Virus record (IMG/VR): IMGVR_UViG_3300023198_001125
Length of the DNA stretch: 64,000 bases
Origin: a virus
Reading direction: 5' to 3' (one strand)
Below are positions 4,009-29,044 of this stretch, in pieces. The position numbers and the translations under genes are program-made. Within the stretch, counting starts at the first letter, position 1. Every line of letters starts with the position of its first letter. The notes below the pieces were generated by a model. It ran no database searches and was not told the origin of the DNA. It saw only the letters and a program-made list of their open reading frames with translations.

Positions 4009-5009
4009 GCCGACCATGCGGTAGTGTTTAGTCTCTTCCATGGTCGATGGCATCAAATGAGCCACCCAACGGAGTAGAACTAAAAGCCAACCGAACCCCG
4101 CCCCGTTTGCCAGCCTACGTGGATAGAACAAGAGCCCACGGGGGCTGGGTCAAACGGATGCGTGCTCCCGCCCAAGAACGCTCTGGGCGGGTGATTGCGT
4201 AAGTGCAAGAACGATAGTGCCCGCTACGTGCTGGAACGATAGTACCGTTTAAGAGCATCTGGGCTCGGTCGGCTTCGCCTCCCTCGCCAATGAAAGAACG
4301 TCACACTACCGGCCAGGCCATGGAGGCCACCCACCTTGCTTGGGCCCACCTGCGTGGCAAGAACAGCCACGGGGGTGGGCTCCAGCGGTGGTTGGCTTTC
4401 ATTGAATACGGCCACACCCTACCACCTGCGTGGCACCATGAGCAAAGAACGCTCATGCTTGTGCCACGGGGGTGGTGTAGTGGCCTGCAAGCGGAATACC
4501 ACCCACTCCGTCGTCGACCACTCTCACAACGGGAGTACAACACACCCTGTGCTTGGTGTCGCCTACGTGGTGCAGCCTAAGAACAGGCTGTACACACCAC
4601 GGGGGCTCGCCAGCCAGGGTACCCAATGACGATAGAACGTTGTCATTGGTGTGTTGGTAGCATTGTATCGGTGGTCAACGACATGGGTGGGTGCCTTACT
4701 ATAAGAGGGAGCCAGTGCACTCATATGGTGCATAGAACAAGAGCGCACCACACTCATTGGCACTGGACATGTGGGCCGTGATGCACAGTACGCTCACGCA
4801 TGCCCACATGTGGCTAATGACCACCATGTACGTACACGTATATATATCTAATGATGTGTATGGTACGGCGGCACCAAGAGCAGGTGCCGACCATGCGGTA
4901 GTAGGTGGCCATACATCTAAAAGAACAGTTGTGCTAGGGATTATGTAGTAGTGGTTTTCCTCGAGCCCATTATGGCAATGCCCCCCAAGAACATCAAGAA
5001 CGGGGGGCA
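4009..5009. repeat. non-coding array of nine stem-loops with AAGAAC/TAGAAC/AAGAGC loops; 17-bp direct repeat at 4009-4025 and 4886-4902
   Basis: Hairpins at 4111-4147, 4167-4191, 4344-4380, 4421-4476, 4561-4606, 4623-4649, 4712-4766, 4869-4889, 4979-5009; repeat is GCCGACCATGCGGTAGT. Confidence 0.85.
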
Positions 5010-7869: not shown

Positions 7870-8073
7870 ATGATGCCCAGCAAGTTATTATATCTCCAGC
7901 AATTCGGTATTGACCCAGCAGTTGAATGCCCCGAGGGCGAACGCTGTTGGTGGTGCAATACCCCAACCACCCGGTTGGTATTGGTAGAGACGGAAACTTA
8001 TAAAGCACACCGTCTCGAATGCGGTAATTGCAAGCCTCCGAAAGAGTACACAGTAACGGAGGTCAGCAGTTAG
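7870..8073 (+). CDS. small Zn-finger protein
   Basis: CWWC...CGNC, AGGAGGT RBS. Confidence 0.7.
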   Translation: MMPSKLLYLQQFGIDPAVECPEGERCWWCNTPTTRLVLVETETYKAHRLECGNCKPPKEYTVTEVSS

Positions 8074-8162
8074 TAAATCAGGGCGTAGTCAGCAATGGCT
8101 ACGCCCTTTCAGTCGTTAATACTAAACCCGGCAACGGGAACTATCATGACCTAGGAGGTCAC

Positions 8163-8702
8163 ATGTCTCAGCAACGTTTATTCAGTTTGTATCGGCACGA
8201 CAACAACGAGTGCTTGATTGCTGATGTACCACAATCAGAGATCATCACCCGCCAAGCGTCCTATCACGCCCACGGTGGTAAATCAACGCTCGTCGTTGTA
8301 CCTGAAGGGCAGGAGTATCCCAAGCCTGCAACCGTAGCCGCAATCACCACCGAAGGCGAACCGCTGGAAGTGCAGGCAGTTCAGGGTGCATTGCCCGGCA
8401 TGGAGGAAGTCGCAATTGCACAGTCCGTAGCCATTGAGGCTTGCGAGTTCATCCTCCGTGAAGGCCCCAAGGTGGGCAAGAATTACTCATGGAGCGGCGT
8501 CATCAAGCGGGTCATGAACGGTAAAACCCCAACCGCTGATCCCGTTGACGAAAACGGTAAGCCAATCTTTGACAAGAATGGCCGCAAGAAGGTTGGCGAA
8601 CGCACCTACTTGTTCAACACCGTCAGCGAAATCGTTGCTGATGCCAAGCAGATGATTGCAAACCGTGAAGGCATTGCGATCATGAAAGAACTCTCCGAGT
8701 AA
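8163..8702 (+). CDS. hypothetical protein
   Basis: AGGAGGT RBS before ATG 8163. Confidence 0.75.
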   Translation: MSQQRLFSLYRHDNNECLIADVPQSEIITRQASYHAHGGKSTLVVVPEGQEYPKPATVAAITTEGEPLEVQAVQGALPGMEEVAIAQSVAIEACEFILREGPKVGKNYSWSGVIKRVMNGKTPTADPVDENGKPIFDKNGRKKVGERTYLFNTVSEIVADAKQMIANREGIAIMKELSE

Positions 8703-8774: not shown

Positions 8775-9077
8775 ATGATGATTTATTACAACCCGAACGT
8801 AGAACTGTTCTGTGATGCGTGTGGCATCGAGATAGTGACTAGCAACTATTGCACCTATCCCAACTACGATGGTGTATTCCATCGTCAATGTGCCAACCCG
8901 GAGGCGGTCGATGGCCTACTAATTGGCTATAACAACGTTGTAGTAGGCGTTGATGAAACGGTGCTCGTGAAAGAGGCCGTTGAAACAGCCGATGCACGCC
9001 AGCACCCAAGTGATTGTGGTTGCAGTTGGTGTGTACCGTTAGCTTGGGGGAGCCTCACTCCAGCGGCGGAGTATTAA
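8775..9077 (+). CDS. hypothetical Zn-binding protein
   Basis: CDAC...HRQC, CGCSWC; AGGAGGT RBS. Confidence 0.7.
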   Translation: MMIYYNPNVELFCDACGIEIVTSNYCTYPNYDGVFHRQCANPEAVDGLLIGYNNVVVGVDETVLVKEAVETADARQHPSDCGCSWCVPLAWGSLTPAAEY

Positions 9078-9203
9078 GGCTTGCACCGCTCAGCGAAGAA
9101 CCAGCTGAGCGCCGTCAAGCCCGGCGGCCTGGCCATTCGGCTAGGTCGCCTTTTCTTGGGTTAAGCCATAATTCTGTGGCTAATTCTCTCACGGAGGTGC
9201 ACG

Positions 9204-9320
9204 ATGTTCTTGGGTATTCCTACTTGGCAATGGGGGATAGTTCTGTTAATCCTATTCGTAGTATGGAGGTTGTGGGATGCCATCACAATTACCAAACCCA
9301 CGCACAGATGGGACGAGTAG
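9204..9320 (+). CDS. small single-TM protein
   Basis: 38 aa (MFLGIPTWQWGIVLLILFVVWRLW...), GGAGGT RBS; translated by hand. Confidence 0.55.
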   Translation: MFLGIPTWQWGIVLLILFVVWRLWDAITITKPTHRWDE

Positions 9321-9596
9321 CCCAAGCCGAGAGCCAGGCAAAGAACGCCTGGCTCTCTACCTATTTTTTTGTAGAACATGGAGATTGTTCCTACCCAAAG
9401 GTGGTAAAACAAAAGCCACCTTTGGCTGGAACAATGAACATCAAGGAGCAACAGGCTCCAACACGAAGGAGGTGCATGTAAAGACGAGTAAGAGCCTTGC
9501 TAAGTACGTCTATGAAGGGCGAGGACAGGGAGTTAAGGGCCAACACGCTATACGCGAAAATATCTCTATCCCACCCCTGGTCACAAGGAGATAATC

Positions 9597-9779
9597 ATGA
9601 ACGGCATAATGGGAAACATTGGAACGCTTGCATATATATGCATTCCAAGTTGGATTATTTTTTCGGCAATATTAGTTACTATCATTTGTATCAACAGTTC
9701 CAGACTGAGCAGGATCGATGAACCATTCAAAGACCCGGCGGAACTGGCAGAAGAACGAAGGCTTAGGAGGCCACGATGA
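9597..9779 (+). CDS. small single-TM protein
   Basis: AAGGAG RBS, hydrophobic N-terminus. Confidence 0.6.
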   Translation: MNGIMGNIGTLAYICIPSWIIFSAILVTIICINSSRLSRIDEPFKDPAELAEERRLRRPR

Positions 9780-18618: not shown

Positions 18619-18648
18619 CCCCCACCTTAACCGGTGGGGGTTTTTTTT
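18619..18648 (+). terminator. intrinsic terminator
   Basis: CCCCCACC/GGTGGGGG followed by T8. Confidence 0.85.
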
Positions 18649-18663
18649 GGAAGGAGTAGTGTT

Positions 18664-19392
18664 ATGCCTCAGCTTTATGAATTGTTAGCAGTAGAACCCG
18701 AATTGCGTCAGCAGGCTCAAGCCAAGCTCAAGGATATCTCCCTGATTTTCTCGAAGGGCGCAGGTCGATTTGTTGGTCAGTTGACATCTTTCAACGTTCT
18801 CTTGGAGGGAGAACCCGAGATCGAGGACGAAGAGATGGTGTTGGCCACTACCGTTGAGAAAGAGCTGCAAAGCCTATTTCATGTTTATGGTGGCTATTTG
18901 GATGTTACAATCCAGAAGGAAGTCACCAATACCAACACCAGAGCAACTGTTGAAATTGGTGATATCAATTTCGATCTCCCTGCGACTGCTTTGCTAAACC
19001 TGGAAAGTCGCCTGGAGGAGCTCAGAAAGGTCTACGCTCGTATCCCAACCCTTGACCCATCAGAAGTATGGGTTTTCGATGTAGGTCAAGAGCGCTACGT
19101 ATCCAAAGTACGCAGCACGATCCGAACGAAGAAAGTCCCGAAGACCATTGTAAAGTACGATGCCACGGTGGAGCATCCCGCACAGGTAGAACTGTTCAAC
19201 GAGGATGTTCCTGCGTATAAGCTCGAGAAGACCGTTTTCTCCGGCGCTTTGACTGTTGCAGCGAAGACTGCTCGCATTGAGCGGATTGACGAACTCATCC
19301 GTCTGGTCAAAAAGGCTCGTCAACGGGCTAATGATACTGAACTGGACTTTGGGAAAATCTCCGAAGCTCTTGAAGAGTACATTAATGGATAA
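18664..19392 (+). CDS. conserved hypothetical protein (resembles the family I recall as DUF7873)
   Basis: PATALLNLE..L, IPTLDP, RTKKVP...VKYDATVEHPAQV...EDV, FSGAL, VKKARQRAN; family name from memory, unverified. Confidence 0.7.
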   Translation: MPQLYELLAVEPELRQQAQAKLKDISLIFSKGAGRFVGQLTSFNVLLEGEPEIEDEEMVLATTVEKELQSLFHVYGGYLDVTIQKEVTNTNTRATVEIGDINFDLPATALLNLESRLEELRKVYARIPTLDPSEVWVFDVGQERYVSKVRSTIRTKKVPKTIVKYDATVEHPAQVELFNEDVPAYKLEKTVFSGALTVAAKTARIERIDELIRLVKKARQRANDTELDFGKISEALEEYING

Positions 19393-22180: not shown

Positions 22181-22960
22181 CTATTTCTCAACAGTTTGTT
22201 CTGATATATCCTGATGGAGGAGTTGCTCTTCTAATTGGTCATCACTCTCGTCAGTCTCGCTTTCTGTCATGGAAGACAAAGGCGTCGTTTCTGATGGAAA
22301 ATGTAACTCGTCGGACAGGGCTTGATCTATACCTAATTGATCTTCGAGCGAGCTACTGTCCGGATTGTCGAGTAAGGCAGGATTGGTGCTTATGTACTCT
22401 GCCTCTAATACCTCCTCTTCGACCTCGACGTACTCAGTCGGTAAAACAATCTTGACCTCAGTGAGGTCTATCTTGTTTTCAACAAGAAAGGAGACAAGTT
22501 CCTGTCTATCAGACTGAGCGGGCTGCATGTTCTCGAGCCCATTGAGTTGGATGACCTTCTCGATAGCACGTAGTTTAGTACCGGCGGCTATAGTGCCGGT
22601 CAAGAGACCTTTGAGCTTGCCAATGGCAAGTGGTAGCATGTCCGCTAACGCGCCCTGCGCTGCCTTGTATCTAGGATCATGCCCCAGCTCTGCAAAGAGC
22701 ATGTTGTAAGCAGTATCAAACTCTTCGGTTTTGGTGATGTCACGTAACTGGTGTGGGGAGATTTCCATTTCATCTGCGATCTCAGCCCATGTGCGTCCAT
22801 CATCAAGGTCAAGAAAGAGTGCAGCGGCTAGTTCTGCACGTTGTTGTCGTATAAAGTCTTCGCGCTCTGCTTTAGTGAGCTTTACACGACGTCCCTTTTT
22901 AGACTGGCGCTCTGCGAGAGCACCAGTAACTATTTCTGTATCAACTTTGAGCTTAGACAT
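22181..22960 (-). CDS. HTH-containing protein, possibly terminase small subunit-like or a regulator
   Basis: RTWAEIADEMEISPHQLR helix-turn-helix, acidic tail; lone minus-strand gene in a plus block. Confidence 0.6.
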   Translation of the reverse strand: MSKLKVDTEIVTGALAERQSKKGRRVKLTKAEREDFIRQQRAELAAALFLDLDDGRTWAEIADEMEISPHQLRDITKTEEFDTAYNMLFAELGHDPRYKAAQGALADMLPLAIGKLKGLLTGTIAAGTKLRAIEKVIQLNGLENMQPAQSDRQELVSFLVENKIDLTEVKIVLPTEYVEVEEEVLEAEYISTNPALLDNPDSSSLEDQLGIDQALSDELHFPSETTPLSSMTESETDESDDQLEEQLLHQDISEQTVEK

Positions 22961-22966
22961 ATGTCC

Positions 22967-23003: not shown

Positions 23004-23309
23004 ATGGCTGAAGGCGATTTGCAAGGATTTGATCAATTTCTGGAAGGCTTGGGCGGCGGAGAGGGCGAGGCAGAAAACCCCCTGTTCGACCCGGAGCAAA
23101 TAATTACCCTGCGTTCTACTACTGGTGGCGGGCAAGACTTCGCTATTCCAGTGGAAGAGCCAACCTCGATCCGTGACCTCATTCAGGGCGCAAACCTGAC
23201 TGTATCGCAGGAGATTGAGTACTGGGTTGACGGCAATGTCGTCGAGCCAGATTATGTTGTAGCCCCTGGCGCAACCGTTACCGCTGTTGGTATGGTCAAG
23301 GGAGGCTGA
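23004..23309 (+). CDS. ubiquitin-like (beta-grasp) protein ending in Gly-Gly
   Basis: ...YWVDGNVVEPDYVVAPGATVTAVGMVKGG-stop; first gene of a Ubl/E2/JAB/E1 cluster. Confidence 0.85.
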   Translation: MAEGDLQGFDQFLEGLGGGEGEAENPLFDPEQIITLRSTTGGGQDFAIPVEEPTSIRDLIQGANLTVSQEIEYWVDGNVVEPDYVVAPGATVTAVGMVKGG

Positions 23310-23375
23310 AAACTAAAGTGGTGTATCCTTGCCCTCCCCACGGTGAGGGTACACCATTATCTCTAGGAGCAGAGC

Positions 23376-24077
23376 ATGGTAATTACAGTAAAGAAGAAGT
23401 GCAAGGTAGATGACGGAGTGATGATTATCTATAAGGAGATGGCTCTCAAAGCACTCGAGGCTATCTATGACAATCTCAACACATCGAGAGCCGCCGCAAA
23501 ATATCTCTCCGATAGAAGAGGAGATGTTGCACGTCTCAATGACATAGCCAAGGGCGTATCCAGGCCAGGTAGAGGCATAGACTTAGAGAAGACCAGGCTA
23601 AGAGGAATTGACTTTCATAATATTACAGTGAAAAATATATATGGTAAAAATTATCTAGTAGCACATACAAGAGACATGATAATGACTACTCCTGGTCAGA
23701 GGCACAGTTCGGAAGACTATAGTCCGATGCGTCGCTATACTCATTACGGTTATGAGTATGACCATGGCGATTACAGGGTCTATGTCGATATAAATACCCT
23801 GGGAACACCTAATATATCTCAGTTGCATTTTATACCTGACCTCGACGAGTTCACAGAGAGCAGGCACTACCATCACAAGGCTGATCCAAGGCCAGAGATG
23901 GATCACCCGGTACAGATGGCCCCCTACTCTTGTTGGGGCAATTTTGCAGGCCCGCTGGCGGCCAACCTGTCTTATTGCGACCTGCCGGAATTGTTTAGAA
24001 TGCTAAGAGCATTTGTTGGCCGCTATAATCCTGGCTCGCCACTAACAACCCCTAGATTTGGGAAAGGTAAAATATGA
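23376..24077 (+). CDS. prokaryotic E2-like protein (putative Ubl-conjugating enzyme)
   Basis: C-terminal HYHH...YSCWGNF with a candidate catalytic Cys; located between Ubl and JAB. Confidence 0.6.
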   Translation: MVITVKKKCKVDDGVMIIYKEMALKALEAIYDNLNTSRAAAKYLSDRRGDVARLNDIAKGVSRPGRGIDLEKTRLRGIDFHNITVKNIYGKNYLVAHTRDMIMTTPGQRHSSEDYSPMRRYTHYGYEYDHGDYRVYVDINTLGTPNISQLHFIPDLDEFTESRHYHHKADPRPEMDHPVQMAPYSCWGNFAGPLAANLSYCDLPELFRMLRAFVGRYNPGSPLTTPRFGKGKI

Positions 24078-24793
24078 ATATCAAACTACGAATGACGGCC
24101 TCTGTTGCCTTGAGGTTAGAGACCGCAGTCAAGGAAACTCGTGGACTTGAGTTTTCTGGCCTTGGTTTCTGCAAGCAGGAGCGGGGCGGCATTGTAATCT
24201 ATGATGTTGTAGTCATGCATGTAGGAAGCGAGGCATATACAGAGATAGACCCTAAAAGTGTTATCGATCTCATGGAGAGAGAAGACAACGAGAACATGCA
24301 TGTCTGGTTTCACAGACATCCAGTTGGGAACGGGATACCAGGCAGGCATTGCTGGAGTGGGATGGACGAGAATACCATCCAGACCAACCCGCTGGGCGGC
24401 ATTCCAGAGCTAGTCAAGTGGAGTATATCCATTGTACGTACACCAGGCGGGTGGGTGGGCAGACTGGACGACCACATCAACAAGACTACCATGCACATCC
24501 CGCTGCATCCGCAACTACCAATGGATTACATCCAATGTATCAGGGATATGACCCCGAAACAGTTCACGGCTTACCCGATGCCGAATGAGAAAAAAAAGCC
24601 GATCCTTCTCCGACCCCTGGCACGGAAAAATCGAGAAGTCACAGAGAAGGTCTATTCAGACGCCTTTGGCGACGACTACTGGACTGAACAGAGGTGGTAC
24701 GAAGAAGATTACGACACCGATACCGAGCTCGAGTTCCAACTTAGCTTATGGGAGCCAGATAATGACGATGAGAGAATACCTGGAGAACATTAG
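24074..24793 (+). CDS. JAB/MPN metallopeptidase (deubiquitinase-like)
   Basis: LEFSG; WFHRHP...WSGMD (E, HxH, SxxD). Confidence 0.85.
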   Translation: MNIKLRMTASVALRLETAVKETRGLEFSGLGFCKQERGGIVIYDVVVMHVGSEAYTEIDPKSVIDLMEREDNENMHVWFHRHPVGNGIPGRHCWSGMDENTIQTNPLGGIPELVKWSISIVRTPGGWVGRLDDHINKTTMHIPLHPQLPMDYIQCIRDMTPKQFTAYPMPNEKKKPILLRPLARKNREVTEKVYSDAFGDDYWTEQRWYEEDYDTDTELEFQLSLWEPDNDDERIPGEH

Positions 24794-24959
24794 TTCTTTG
24801 GCTAAAGAATTCCCCGAAGTTTTAGATTACGTTGTGGTTTCAAACAAGGGAGGGTTTCATGACGAGGTTGAGTTCTACCCACATCCAGGACTATGGCAAC
24901 CGAAGTCAGGAGCATTTCGTACTGGCACAAATAAAGCCAATGCGATCTGTATAAACTGA
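24762..24959 (+). CDS. hypothetical protein
   Basis: GGAG RBS, MTMREYLENI... Confidence 0.55.
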   Translation: MTMREYLENISSLAKEFPEVLDYVVVSNKGGFHDEVEFYPHPGLWQPKSGAFRTGTNKANAICIN

Positions 24960-24970
24960 GGAGATGAAGA

Positions 24971-25198
24971 ATGAAGTCAGTACACAAAGCGCTGGTTGTA
25001 GTTCACAATGTAAAGTACACCAGAATGGTTCGAGAGGCCAGGTTTAGAGGCAGGGTAGAGAGGGTGTTTGGTCAGACCAAGTTCCTATGGACTGGGCTGG
25101 TAAAGGTGAACGCTAGACTTCATCAGGTGTTTGGCTACACTCACTCGTTCAACGTCCCGCCTGTAAATTGGAGTTCCCAGGAGGAGATAAATGGTTGA
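24971..25198 (+). CDS. small basic protein
   Basis: GAGGAG RBS, 75 aa. Confidence 0.6.
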   Translation: MKSVHKALVVVHNVKYTRMVREARFRGRVERVFGQTKFLWTGLVKVNARLHQVFGYTHSFNVPPVNWSSQEEING

Positions 25199-25871
25199 CC
25201 ACATTAGACATAGTGGTATCTTTCAGATAAAGGATCAAGACATCAGCGTTGTTGGGTGTGGAGGTATCGGCGCCATCACTGCCATTACGCTGGCAAAGAT
25301 GGGGTTCGATAACATCCAACTTTTCGACGCCGAAAACGTTGAGGAGGAAAATATTGCTACTCAGTTCCACCCACTTGGTTCGCTTAACAAACCAAAGAAT
25401 TTGTCGGTGCAACGAGAGATAGGCAAGCACGATCCATCGATAGAGGTGCACACATTTCCCAACGTTGATGAGAATACCAACCTGGTTGGCCAGTTCATCT
25501 TTTGTACGGTGGACAGCATTACCTCCAGGAAGGCAGTCTGGGAGGCGGCGAAGAAAGGCCGGTGGCTGTACTATCTTGATGCCCGCATGGGTGCCGAGGT
25601 GTTTCAGTTATACAGTGTACACAACGCCGACATGGAGTGGTATGATAAGAGGCTGGCTCAAATTAGTGAAGACGACATACCCGAGCTACCCTGTACTGAG
25701 AAAGCAACCATCTACACCGCCATGGGTGCCGCCAGTTTTATCGGCAGTACTGTAAGGAAATTCCTAACCAACCAACATGTTCCAAGATTTCAACAAATGG
25801 ATTACGTCAATGGTACATTCTTTCATTCAGGCTTTCATAAGGAAAGTGACATTTCCCCGCTGTCAAAGTGA
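25191..25871 (+). CDS. ThiF/E1-like Ubl-activating enzyme
   Basis: VVGCGGIG, LFDAENVEEENIATQ, CTVDS, LDARMG, candidate catalytic Cys in PELPCTEK. Confidence 0.9.
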   Translation: MVDHIRHSGIFQIKDQDISVVGCGGIGAITAITLAKMGFDNIQLFDAENVEEENIATQFHPLGSLNKPKNLSVQREIGKHDPSIEVHTFPNVDENTNLVGQFIFCTVDSITSRKAVWEAAKKGRWLYYLDARMGAEVFQLYSVHNADMEWYDKRLAQISEDDIPELPCTEKATIYTAMGAASFIGSTVRKFLTNQHVPRFQQMDYVNGTFFHSGFHKESDISPLSK

Positions 25872-25984
25872 GGAAGGTGTTGTACTCCAGTGAATATGGA
25901 AATGGCACTCACTGGAGGTGAGTTCAATGATGGCTGACAAAAACCAAGTATATTATATCGGAGTTGGGGAACGGGAGGTGTATC

Positions 25985-26926
25985 GTGCACTCGTTTCAGG
26001 AGATCAGAGATTTTAGAAGAATATATACCATCAGGTCGGTGCTCAATTATCATGGGCGCAAGAACTGGATGGTGTGTCCGCTGCCTCAGCATTTGCACGG
26101 CAACAGTCCGACCCCATCGTTTTCTATCTACTATGACAAGGATGGCGTGGAGAGGTTTAAGTGTCACGGAGTTTGTGGTTTGAAGGGTGATGTGATTGAT
26201 TTGATTGGTTACTTGCAGGTCTCATCGTACGACCCTACCAGTATCAACTCCGTTCTCCGCGCCGTCTCTATTCTAGGTAATAAGTTTGAAATATCGACCG
26301 CCCCTAAAAAGGTGCGTCGTGACCTCCTTAGAGCCGATGCCTGGCGGGCCTATGTCCCGCCGGGTGTCGAAGCTCATAGGTTTGCCGAGAGTAGGGGGTT
26401 GACCCGTCCTACCGTAGAGAAGTTCAAGATCGGCCAGAAGAATAGTTATTTGTCCATGCCCGTGTTTGAGAACGAGAAGCTTGCTGGTATTAAGTTCAGG
26501 GCAATGTATCCTGGTGGTGCCAGTCTCAGGTTTTTTACAGAGAAAGGTAGTAGAGCAGGGCTGTTCAACTTTGATAGGGTACTATGGACTGAAAAACCAG
26601 TTCTTATTGTCAAGGGCGAGATACCTGTGATGCTGCTGGATCAATATGATATGCTGGCGTGTGCTCCTACCGGTGGCGAGGGAATGTTGGTGGACGAGTA
26701 CGCAAGAGCACTAGCGTTTTCAGCTAGAAGGGTCGTCGTAGGTGATAATGACCCTGACGCAGAGGTAAGGGAGAAGATGCAAGAGGCCGCCAGGGTGCGT
26801 GCTAACGCGCTCCATGCCGAGCTGAGATTTCCTCCCGAAAAGTATAAAGACATTGACGAGTGGATACTTGCCGATGAATATGCAATCGATGAGATAAAAA
26901 GATGGTTTGATGGTTGGTCATTCTAA
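25985..26926 (+). CDS. DNA primase (CHC2 Zn finger + TOPRIM)
   Basis: CPLPQH...FKCHGVC; IVKGE...VVGDND; GTG start after GGGAGG. Confidence 0.85.
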   Translation: MHSFQEIRDFRRIYTIRSVLNYHGRKNWMVCPLPQHLHGNSPTPSFSIYYDKDGVERFKCHGVCGLKGDVIDLIGYLQVSSYDPTSINSVLRAVSILGNKFEISTAPKKVRRDLLRADAWRAYVPPGVEAHRFAESRGLTRPTVEKFKIGQKNSYLSMPVFENEKLAGIKFRAMYPGGASLRFFTEKGSRAGLFNFDRVLWTEKPVLIVKGEIPVMLLDQYDMLACAPTGGEGMLVDEYARALAFSARRVVVGDNDPDAEVREKMQEAARVRANALHAELRFPPEKYKDIDEWILADEYAIDEIKRWFDGWSF

Positions 26927-28435: not shown

Positions 28436-29044
28436 ATGGCTAAGAAAGATAAAACGTTAGTGTGCTTTGTGCTGGATCAAAGTGGCTCCATGTGGTCTGT
28501 CAAGGATGACACCATTGGTGGTTACAATGAGTACATTGGTGGTCTTCGAGACGAGAAGAATATGTCGATGATGCTGACCCGCTTTAATACACAGGCGGTT
28601 ACTGTTGGTGAACCTGAGCCAATCAAGAATGTAACCAAGCTCTCTAAAGAAAATTACCGGCCTAGCTCTGGCACCCCGCTTTATGATGCAGTTGGCAGGG
28701 CTATCAAAGTAGCCGAGGCACACAAGAAAGTCAAGAATGTTCTTGTTGTTATCATGACTGATGGCCTGGAGAACTCATCTATAGAGTACGGAAGGAAAGC
28801 TCTGTTTGCTCTTGTCAAAGAGAAGGAGGAGGAGGGGTGGAAGTTTGCTTACCTTGGTGCCAATCAGGATGCGTATGCTGAGAGCGGTCTGATAGGTATT
28901 CAGAAGGGTGCTACTATGAACTACAGCCAGGATAGAACGGCTGAGACATTTAATGCCACCCTGCATGCAACCAAGCGGTACGCCCAAGCTCCGCAATCAA
29001 AGGACGATCTCTTTGATAAAGAGGAGAAGGATAAGGTCAAATAA
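28436..29044 (+). CDS. vWA (MIDAS) domain protein
   Basis: VLDQSGSM, GTPLYDAVG, VIMTDGLENSS. Confidence 0.9.
   Translation: MAKKDKTLVCFVLDQSGSMWSVKDDTIGGYNEYIGGLRDEKNMSMMLTRFNTQAVTVGEPEPIKNVTKLSKENYRPSSGTPLYDAVGRAIKVAEAHKKVKNVLVVIMTDGLENSSIEYGRKALFALVKEKEEEGWKFAYLGANQDAYAESGLIGIQKGATMNYSQDRTAETFNATLHATKRYAQAPQSKDDLFDKEEKDKVK

Follow-up and report, generated by a model that had tools for sequence, protein, structure and literature searches.

We describe a gene cassette, carried by a phage of uncultured Chloroflexota, that probably constitutes a self-contained, thioester-type ubiquitin-like (Ubl) conjugation module acting during infection. It encodes a Ubl protein with a C-terminal Gly-Gly, a highly divergent E2-like protein, a JAMM/JAB peptidase and a minimal E1. 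To date, work on comparable kits has concerned only those with which bacteria defend themselves against phages. On the best reading of its features, the cassette resembles an unfused type I Bub system in layout and Bil or UBA5 in chemistry, without belonging to either group. In the following sections, the term window refers to the whole stretch of DNA that was analysed (64,000 nucleotides).

Organization and distribution of the cassette

The cassette spans positions 23004-25871 on the + strand and consists of six closely packed genes, some of which overlap. The Ubl gene (23004-23309; 101 aa) is preceded by a GGAGG ribosome-binding site 7 nt upstream and followed by the gene of the E2-like protein (23376-24077; 233 aa), which shares 4 nt with the JAMM/JAB peptidase gene (24074-24793; 239 aa). 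Small ORF D (24762-24959; 65 aa) overlaps the end of the JAB gene, and small ORF E (24971-25198; 75 aa) has an 8-nt overlap with the E1 gene (25191-25871; 226 aa). All of these ORFs had been listed in a preliminary description made from the sequence alone, and all six are present on the + strand at these coordinates. The primase that it had placed directly after the cassette was likewise found, as a DnaG-type protein encoded on the same strand (25964-26926; phrog_47 at 2.3e-20, Zn_ribbon_DnaG). On the other side, a divergently transcribed gene on the - strand (22181..22961, with a likely ATG at 22961) encodes a helix-turn-helix (HTH) protein of ~260 aa with an acidic C-terminal tail. This protein shows only weak matches, to HTH_23 and phrog_2538, and a homologue occupies the same divergent position in 14 related loci. 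It is thus a constant neighbour of the cassette and could be a regulator or a small-terminase-like protein.

The window is phage DNA, with 13 tRNA genes (including Lys-UUU and Glu-UUC) and genes for a capsid protein, a GH25 lysozyme, a DnaB helicase and the primase. No genes for thiamine or molybdopterin synthesis were found in it, and the preliminary description had noted none near the cassette; rhodanese, PP-loop and NifS motifs were not found in it either, and five related viral records also contain no rhodanese above the cut-off, PP-loop ATPase or desulfurase motif. Within the cassette, E1 is the sole protein with a Pfam match, and the single PADLOC match is a partial one of Cap2 models to the adenylation part of E1. 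The remaining five proteins gave no match in Pfam, PADLOC or PHROG, except for one PHROG match of ORF E at chance level (E 0.06). GenBank phages contain no DNA match to the window, and tblastn searches of them with the E2-like and JAB proteins were likewise negative. Among sequencing runs, only small shares matched, in DNA runs from marine sediment, and RNA runs gave no match.

In IMG/VR, relatives were found with JAB and primase alignments. About 20 loci share the gene order Ubl, E2-like protein (present once or as two copies), JAB, E1, primase. Each of them stems from a viral contig, a provirus or a metagenome-assembled genome (MAG) of Chloroflexota. Wherever the surroundings of the E2-like gene were inspected, it is flanked by a GG-ended Ubl on one side and by the JAB and E1 genes on the other. 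The primase follows the cassette in nearly all relatives, and the position between the HTH and primase genes is kept even where the E2-like proteins are only ~25-33% identical to that of the window. With the primase as bait, the full cassette was recovered in five of six viral contigs. One relative has an E1 and no Ubl, E2 or JAB within 61 kb of its sequence. Two records are classed as proviruses by IMG/VR, a further copy has an integrase and cellular genes as neighbours on a MAG contig of 1.8 Mb, and other relatives have integrases within a few kb of the cassette. The cassette lineage thus comprises deeply diverged temperate phages of Chloroflexota. An apparent JAB-E1 fusion in locus L002 was discarded, since the copies of this MAG (L001, L002 and L019) show broken frames resembling assembly errors.

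Small ORFs D and E had been proposed as adaptors or substrates, a suggestion that the comparison does not bear out. ORFs of matching size were seen solely in a relative with 91% identity in the E2-like protein, other cassettes yielded no homologue, and other branches carry unrelated small ORFs at the position of ORF E. A short resemblance (R-x-x-V-E-R-x-F-G) between ORF E and small ORFs preceding E1 in loci L007 and L008 was too weak to be retained. Because they are unconserved, both ORFs were rejected as core parts; judged from these comparisons, they appear to be lineage-specific.

Predicted properties of the four core proteins

The motifs named in the preliminary description proved to be the conserved ones, namely the cysteine of the E2-like protein (C186), the JAMM residues, the E1 cysteine (C168) and the VKGG end of the Ubl. 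The Ubl consists of an acidic N-terminal extension of ~27 aa, which is probably disordered, and one beta-grasp domain that ends in G-x-V-K-G-G directly before the stop codon. Its Atlas model matches ThiS/MoaD/SAMP2 clusters (TM 0.54-0.62), in agreement with the beta-grasp fold expected from its size. In the Ubl alignment (A5, n=7), residues D29, P30, G89, T91, G96 and V98-K-G-G101 are invariant, and all 19 related loci whose Ubl end could be read show G-x-[VI]-K-G-G there. Four related Ubls carry 2-3 extra residues after the GG, which indicates that the tag needs processing. We know of no parallel among sulfur carriers for the long acidic N-terminal extension.

The E1 matches PF00899 across residues 4-209 (1.1e-19) as a single ThiF domain, and its best solved relative is UBA5 (1.7e-13). 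It contains a GxGGxG loop, D46, N54, Q58, K69, D108, an N-terminal R6 and, within the PELPC stretch of the crossover loop, C168, a residue that does not vary across the E1 set. A CxxC zinc site is absent, as are rhodanese, inactive-adenylation and Cys domains. In an alignment with E. coli ThiF, the ATP/Mg-binding residues correspond, except for the arginine of the NLxRQ motif (ThiF R70), which is T57 in the window and Thr or Val throughout the E1 family. By these features, the protein is predicted to be a minimal single-domain adenylation enzyme of the ThiF/UBA5 type, in keeping with the initial ThiF/E1 assignment. Since C168 aligns with ThiF Cys184, it fits sulfur chemistry and conjugation alike.

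The JAB protein has a core (residues 1-150) followed by a variable acidic C-terminal tail. Its JAMM motif comprises E26, H80-x-H82 and S95-x-x-D98; H80, H82, S95 and D98 do not vary among 52 homologues, in which E26 is conserved to at least 90%. Pfam models gave no score, and a PDB profile search returned only archaeal Rpn11-like proteins at E ~1, with the E and HxH residues aligned. The Atlas model matches Prok-JAB/JAB/MPN clusters (feature score 0.92, TM 0.5-0.66), which together with the conserved motif upholds the assignment as a JAB peptidase. The protein is predicted to trim Ubl precursors, to remove conjugates, or both.

The family of the 233-aa protein carries no annotation and, clustered at 50% identity, comprises at least 233 clusters. 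C186, in the stretch YSCWGNF, and H166 are invariant in 146 homologues, and the candidate catalytic residue is C186. Further family motifs are H151-F-I-P154, R163-H-x-H166-H167 and [H/N]177-P178. Some phages encode tandem paralogues, both of which keep the RHxHH motif and the Cys-Trp after it. The concentration of histidines (H151, H164, H166 and H167) is unusual for an E2, and these residues could form a metal site. The AF2 model (pLDDT 93.8), which superseded a poor first model from six sequences (pLDDT 64), shows an N-terminal three-helix extension (residues 1-60), followed by a core with the element order of an E2: a helix, a four-strand beta-meander, the Cys just before a helix, and two helices. 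The [H/N]-P pair sits 8-9 residues before the Cys and is presumably the counterpart of the HPN motif of classical E2s, a likeness by spacing without a significant alignment.

The preliminary description had called this protein an E2 and named the call as its weakest link. At the level of the fold, the call gained support. In a VIA search of 48,161 chains, 49 of the 50 best matches belong to the UBC/UEV/RWD superfamily, BubB (9eav_D, Z 4.4) and Cap2 among them, although the Z scores are low (2.9-4.7). AlphaFold DB cluster matches at probability 1.0 include a protein named "UBC core", and the AlphaFold DB matches also comprise one named "RING-type". By sequence, the call is not significant. When all 146 family members were scanned with Pfam, nothing beyond scattered chance matches emerged; a PDB profile search with the family gave only coiled-coil noise, and a scan of IMG/VR with patterns from a shallow E2 alignment no match. 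PF14460 had no match in a genome carrying the cassette, and hhalign of the family alignment (A2) with 15 Prok-E2_D sequences of Chloroflexota genomes placed the cysteines opposite each other but fell short of significance (probability 3.4%, P 0.013). Foldseek, run with the high-pLDDT model, found no match in the PDB, and an Atlas shape search (TM ~0.3) found no UBC-fold match. Taken together, the fold matches suggest that the protein is probably a very divergent E2.

Comparison with known conjugation systems

Experimental proof of Ubl-type conjugation in bacteria is so far confined to systems of the host: Bil, type II CBASS (at its conjugation step) and Bub. Anti-phage defence is proven for the first two. 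In layout, the cassette resembles type I Bub (formerly 6E.1), which consists of BubAB, BubCD and BubE (Ye et al, 2024, PMC11601596). Both encode a Ubl, an E2 (a probable one in the cassette), a JAB and then a minimal, homodimer-type E1 resembling UBA5/ThiF, with the JAB directly before the E1, and neither encodes an E3. BubB is also among the best fold matches of the E2-like protein. However, Bub contains Ubl-E2 and JAB-E1 fusions and a DUF6527 serine protease, and has no catalytic cysteines, using Tyr/Ser oxyesters instead (PMC11601596). In the cassette, the four activities reside on separate genes, DUF6527/BubE was not found among the ORFs by Pfam, and an invariant Cys is retained in the E1 crossover loop as well as in the E2-like protein. 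Furthermore, Bub is found in a bacterial defence context, whereas the cassette is carried by a phage.

The Bil systems (BilABCD, types I and II; Hör et al, 10.1101/2023.09.04.556158; Chambers et al, 10.1101/2023.09.26.559546) share with the cassette the four separate genes for Ubl, E2, JAB and E1, the expected cysteine-based chemistry, and the lack of an E3, with the E2 presumed to choose the target. The Ubl is Gly-terminal in both, and BilA homologues can have residues beyond the terminal Gly (10.1101/2023.09.04.556158), as do the four related Ubls with short overhangs. In contrast to the E1 by which Bil is defined, that of the cassette is a 226-aa single domain (ThiF at residues 4-209). The characterised BilA of Collimonas has two ubiquitin-like domains, whereas the cassette Ubl has one beta-grasp domain and an acidic tail. 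By Pfam and PADLOC models, none of which they matched, the E2-like protein and the JAB showed no link to BilB and BilC. Finally, Bil protects bacteria from phages, while the cassette belongs to a phage. Type II CBASS (Cap2/Cap3), with its E2-E1 fusion, a JAB beside a CD-NTase and no Ubl, is unlike the cassette, which has a separate Ubl and a separate E2-like gene, and no CD-NTase in the ORFs scanned.

The minimal E1s of the UBA5/ThiF type resemble the cassette E1 in their single adenylation domain and the candidate Cys in the crossover loop; they differ from it in the CxxC zinc site, which it lacks, and in the NLxRQ arginine, which it replaces by Thr or Val. UBA5 also has a C-terminal E2-binding/UIS segment, and the 226-aa cassette E1 has nothing comparable. 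Among phages, an E1 28% identical to that of the window is encoded by cultured Flavobacterium psychrophilum phages (Fipvunavirus: FpV4, Fpv1-3 and others), one record of which annotates it as a thiamine biosynthesis protein. The preceding gene in these phages starts with a JAB domain related to that of the cassette (hhalign probability 77%, E 2e-5), and this JAB and "ThiF" pair sits among replication and repair genes, as the cassette sits near replication genes. However, the neighbouring proteins are larger (~420 aa), no homologue of the E2-like protein was found (gp54 against A2, probability 0.1%), and no Ubl was identified in these phages.

Proposed mechanism, alternatives and implications

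From the gene set, conserved residues, folds and synteny described above, we infer the following chemical steps, targets and role. The minimal E1, probably a homodimer like UBA5/ThiF, would adenylate the C-terminal Gly101 of the Ubl and then hold it as a thioester on Cys168 of the crossover loop. From there, the Ubl would be handed to Cys186 of the divergent E2-like protein and finally attached to lysines of target proteins. Since no E3 is encoded, the E2-like protein would choose the targets, perhaps via its N-terminal helical extension, as proposed for Bil. The JAMM peptidase would trim Ubl precursors with residues past the GG and could take the tag off again. The module is presumably transcribed with replication genes and is kept across a deeply diverged lineage, which suggests that it most likely acts during infection, with proteins of the host or the phage as targets, and serves takeover or counter-defence. 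The preliminary description had likewise considered host or phage proteins as targets, with a jamming of host Bil or CBASS conjugation as another candidate role. In its most complete form, in which the virus runs a full cysteine-based Ubl cascade with an unclassified E2 family and tags host or own proteins during infection with an acidic-tailed modifier, this reading is tentative.

The temperate character of the lineage, with two IMG/VR proviruses, a MAG copy beside an integrase and integrases nearby elsewhere, could also fit a defence carried by prophages. The same chemistry would then tag structural proteins of superinfecting phages in a Bil-like manner and protect the lysogen, rather than serve the phage's own infection; for Bil and for Bub, a role in defence or an association with it has been described (PMC11601596). 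We consider such a role unlikely. The cassette is no variable add-on; it occupies one fixed slot between the HTH and primase genes, on the strand of the replication genes, and keeps it at ~25-33% identity of the E2-like proteins. Its PADLOC match is limited to part of the E1 against Cap2 models.

The closest structural matches of the Ubl (ThiS, MoaD and SAMP2) are sulfur carriers, which speaks against conjugation, as do the loss of the NLxRQ arginine from the E1 family and the relative that has an E1 without the other three parts. The Ubl might accordingly be thiocarboxylated, as in ThiS/ThiF, MoaD/MoeB, CysO/MoeZ/Mec+ or TtuB/TtuC, and provide sulfur for phage tRNAs, DNA or a metabolite, with the JAB only processing the carrier and the 233-aa protein serving as a sulfur relay or sulfur-inserting enzyme. 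The ThiF-type E1 with its conserved Cys168 on ThiF Cys184 would suit this chemistry, as would the 13 phage tRNAs, which include Lys-UUU and Glu-UUC; cellular tRNAs of these two kinds carry 2-thiouridine. Sulfur carriers processed by a JAB are also known (Iyer 2006, PMC1779556). However, the E1 has no rhodanese domain, the window and five related viral records contain no candidate sulfur donor of the kinds searched for, though the host could supply one, and thiamine and molybdopterin genes are absent. The acidic extension of the Ubl also fits poorly, and in every context inspected a protein of probable UBC fold, sometimes duplicated and with its Cys and His both invariant, lies between the Ubl and the JAB. 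Four families with fitting folds and residues in one packed gene string, with two overlaps counted, argue for conjugation, and a sulfur-carrier function appears unlikely.

It is very doubtful that the 233-aa protein is instead a His/Cys metal-binding or hydrolytic enzyme resembling the UBC fold, added as an unrelated fourth activity to a Ubl, JAB and E1 trio as in E2-less systems: the lack of a significant sequence link to any E2 family, the structural Z scores below 5, the searches of the PDB and Atlas without a UBC-fold match and the invariant Cys with its four to five conserved histidines nearby would suit such an enzyme, but the share of UBC/UEV/RWD matches in VIA, the element order of the core, the [H/N]-P pair and the fixed gene position all point to an E2.

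Our literature search found no paper on a phage-encoded Ubl/E2/JAB/E1 cassette; its coverage is incomplete and does not prove absence. The conjugation module proposed here mixes types, combining a Bub operon layout with the cysteines of Bil and eukaryotic systems. To our knowledge, its 226-aa E1 is smaller than every characterised conjugating E1. Together with an E2 fold that has drifted past sequence recognition, these features bear on the evolution of E1-E2 cascades. Trypsin would leave a di-Gly remnant of the VKGG end that is identical to that of ubiquitin, so that standard K-GG proteomics could reveal the targets directly. Exploitation of ubiquitin is common among eukaryotic viruses. Throughout a whole phage lineage, the cassette is conserved and firmly built into the block of replication genes, which suggests that bacterial viruses also use protein tagging. 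If this is true, ubiquitin-type tagging would be a viral weapon and not solely a cellular one, and the tandem E2 paralogues of some phages would widen its target range.

Gene string and assigned components

Six closely packed open reading frames (ORFs) occupy positions 23004–25871 on the + strand of the window, exactly where the preliminary description had placed them. They encode a ubiquitin-like protein (Ubl, 23004–23309), an E2-like protein (23376–24077), a JAB peptidase (24074–24793), two small products, ORF D (24762–24959) and ORF E (24971–25198), and an E1 (25191–25871). A GGAGG ribosome-binding site lies 7 nt 5′ of the Ubl ORF, and the second and third ORFs overlap by 4 nt and the fifth and sixth by 8 nt. 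The cassette is followed immediately 3′ by a DnaG-type primase gene (phrog_47, 2e-20), and a ~260-aa protein with a weak helix–turn–helix (HTH) signal is encoded on the opposite strand, starting ~42 bp upstream. The window is a phage, with 13 tRNA genes and genes for a DnaB helicase, a PD-(D/E)XK nuclease, an AAA_24 ATPase, a GH25 lysozyme, and a capsid protein. Just past the tRNA array, it encodes a DUF7873 protein (18634–19392, 2e-62), a family that also opens the 6.9-kb contig of a relative with a 91%-identical E2-like protein. The replication block contains a VWA (CoxE-like) domain protein 2.5 kb 3′ of the cassette (28436–29044; E 1.8e-4, below the Pfam cut-off).

The 101-aa Ubl is assigned by its Atlas structure model, which matches ThiS, MoaD, SAMP2, and RnfH-type beta-grasp clusters over residues 17–101 (TM 0.54–0.62). 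An alignment of seven homologues revealed that D29, P30, G89, T91, G96, and the terminal V-K-G-G are invariant, and that the N-terminal extension varies in length and is acidic throughout. The G-x-[VI]-K-G-G end is present in all 19 related loci in which the Ubl terminus was read. Digestion of conjugates with trypsin would leave a di-Gly remnant of the window's VKGG terminus. Three distinct phages have two or three extra residues between GG and the stop codon (SVA, TG, and MFA), and a fourth such Ubl, at the related locus L004, ends in AR.

The 239-aa JAB peptidase is recognized by its JAMM motif and by its Atlas fold matches, which comprise Prok-JAB, JAB, and MPN clusters as well as JAB–ThiF fusion proteins (TM 0.5–0.66). 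Its homologues form at least 127 clusters, none of which has a precomputed Pfam domain. H80, H82, S95, and D98 of the motif are invariant among 52 homologues, and E26 is conserved in at least 90%. Profile matches in the PDB were confined to archaeal Rpn11-like proteins, with the Glu and HxH aligned (E ~1).

The E1 (226 aa) matches ThiF over its whole length (1.1e-19). Among solved structures, UBA5 is its best relative (1.7e-13), followed by UBA7, PaaA, ThiF, and MccB. Alignment with Escherichia coli ThiF (K-12 record) pairs R6 with R11, D46 with D59, N54 with N67, Q58 with Q71, K69 with K83, D108 with D127, and C168 with C184, the last of which is the crossover-loop cysteine that forms the ThiF–ThiS acyl-disulfide. 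The catalytic C250 of UBA5 occupies the same place as ThiF C184 (PMC11601596). The protein lacks zinc-binding CxxC pairs. In the NLxRQ motif, every one of the seven E1 family members aligned has Thr or Val in place of the arginine (ThiF R70; T57 in the window, 25359–25361), and the other adenylation residues are kept.

A pure sulfur-carrier function fits the Ubl and also the E1 with its C168. Such a function leaves unexplained both the UBC-fold Cys/His protein that is always present and the lack of a rhodanese, PP-loop, or desulfurase partner, none of which was found in the window or the five related viral records, although the host could supply such partners. We regard a true conjugation cascade as moderately probable.

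The E2-like protein

The 233-aa E2-like protein has no sequence match in Pfam, PADLOC, PHROG, or the PDB, whether queried singly or as a family. An exhaustive profile search placed 233 representatives of 50%-identity clusters in the family, and 207 of these scored below 1e-10. The alignment of 146 members shows no substitution at H166 or C186, conservation of at least 93% at T98, G131, Y133, P154, R163, and H167, and conservation of about 86% at H151, H164, and P178; position 177 is His or Asn in most. A profile comparison with Prok-E2_D sequences drawn from Chloroflexota genomes aligned the cysteines but fell short of significance (probability 3.4%, P 0.013).

An AlphaFold2 model built from the family alignment (pLDDT 93.8) consists of three N-terminal helices, a further helix, a four-stranded meander with a disordered insert, a His-rich loop, C186 at a helix start, and two helices. 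Foldseek returned no match to this model in the PDB. VIA, a structure search independent of Foldseek, was run against 48,161 chains, and 49 of the 50 matches listed are E2, UEV, or RWD proteins, including Pex4p, UbcH5, Ubc9, Ubc13, UFC1, and Tsg101; the scores are modest (best Z 4.7). The list also includes the bacterial BubB (9eav_D, Z 4.4) and Cap2 (Z 3.5). Clusters of the AlphaFold DB gave probability-1.0 matches to uncharacterized prokaryotic proteins, some of which are named "UBC core domain" or "RING-type domain".

The conserved histidines (H151, H164, H166, H167, and often H177) adjoin the invariant C186 (residues 151–192; window 23826–23951). E2 proteins do not usually have such a cluster, which may bind a metal. 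It raises the alternative that the protein is an enzyme of a metal-binding or hydrolytic kind, against which stand the UBC-type fold matches and the fixed gene context. On the strength of fold, catalytic-type residues, and gene context rather than sequence, we consider the protein a probable, highly divergent E2. The preliminary interpretation is supported in part: its parts list of Ubl, E2, JAB, and E1 holds, with the E2 entry qualified as probable.

Distribution and variation of the cassette

The order HTH (opposite strand)/Ubl/E2-like/JAB/E1/primase recurs in five IMG/VR viral contigs, in metagenome contigs, and at nine loci from genome collections, all nine in Chloroflexota MAGs (labelled Anaerolineae, Anaerolineaceae, or Chloroflexia). 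Two related records are classed as proviruses by IMG/VR, and one copy adjoins an integrase and cellular genes on a 1.8-Mb MAG contig. Given these Chloroflexota MAGs, provirus records, and the integrase-adjacent copy, the cassette carriers are a lineage of temperate Chloroflexota phages. Identities of relatives to the window proteins are low (E2-like 23–33%, JAB 38–54%, E1 34–45%), which implies long-term retention of the module.

Use of the primase as bait, which lessens sampling bias, recovered six viral contigs, five of which carry the full cassette. The sixth, L051 (IMGVR_UViG_3300040801_003247), has an E1 directly before the primase (4284–4961) with intact motifs (GAGGIG loop, D, N..Q, K, D, and PCTSKAT), and no Ubl, E2-like, or JAB gene was found in the 61 kb of its record. 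An independent function of this lone E1 could explain the pattern, as could an incomplete record.

Some cassettes contain two tandem E2-like paralogues (L007, 2817–3898; L008, 6425–8011; L009, 4306–5669), and the upstream copies in L008 and L009 keep RHxHH and the later Cys-Trp (hhalign against the family, 1e-28 to 3e-37). L009 also has a SymE_toxin-domain gene directly 3′ of the primase (8263–8490). In L002, a pair of paralogous genes, Cys-rich and HNH-like, separates the E1 from the primase (8004–8561 and 8857–9612); the broken JAB and E1 frames in L001 and L019, from the same MAG, are probably assembly errors.

ORFs D and E had been proposed as candidate adaptors or substrates. The relative with the 91%-identical E2-like protein has predicted ORFs of matching size (65 and 75 aa), and one with a 53%-identical E2-like protein has a single 90-aa ORF at this position. 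A weak Gad2 match lies downstream in the latter contig. The other cassettes examined yielded no homologue of ORF D or ORF E, so the adaptor proposal fails; rather than belonging to the core, the two are fillers or accessories specific to their lineage.

Relation to known systems and possible role

Among the known bacterial Ubl-type conjugation systems, type I Bub is closest in layout, sharing the succession Ubl, E2, JAB, minimal E1 and the lack of an E3. The cassette differs in having separate genes, no DUF6527, and both of the catalytic-type cysteines that are missing from Bub. The expected chemistry resembles that of Bil and UBA5/UFC1, but the E1 of Bil is a three-domain enzyme, unlike that of the cassette, and the cassette is not Cap2/Cap3. 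Because of these differences, it is a new variant of prokaryotic ubiquitination-like systems outside the named ones.

No GenBank phage matched the E2-like or JAB protein. E1 relatives (28% identical) occur in Flavobacterium psychrophilum phages, annotated as "thiamine biosynthesis protein ThiF". In cultured Fipvunavirus phages, as in Fpv3 (NC_031904.1, 2707–4639), gp53, which starts with a related JAB domain, lies directly before the "ThiF" gene; a related E2 was not found in the F. psychrophilum phages. This pair is probably a mis-annotated Ubl-type module. Our literature search found no paper describing such a phage-borne Ubl/E2-like/JAB/E1 cassette. Earlier work predicted that mobile elements carry related operons and that phage tail-assembly clusters contain Ubl and JAB pairs (Iyer et al, 2006; PMC1779556).

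The simplest reading of the conjugation cascade is a thioester relay, each step of which we infer from residues, folds, gene order, and the behavior of Bil and Bub. The E1 would adenylate Gly101 of the Ubl and then hold the Ubl on C168, from which it would pass to C186 of the E2-like protein and be joined to target lysines without an E3. The JAB peptidase would trim Ubl precursors and reverse the tagging.

Candidate counter-defence genes in the early region of the window comprise DUF4326 and SLOG genes, and a related phage carries another candidate, an Acb2/Tad1-hairpin family gene (PF24729, an anti-CBASS/Thoeris sponge family), ~4 kb upstream of its cassette (L001, 1968–2192; L002, 1970–2194). 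A defence role that protects the lysogen stays alive because the carrier phages are temperate. Taken together, the fixed position of the cassette, co-oriented with the replication genes, its near-universal presence in the phage lineage, and the candidate counter-defence genes that share the early regions point to action of the conjugation module during infection, in takeover or counter-defence.
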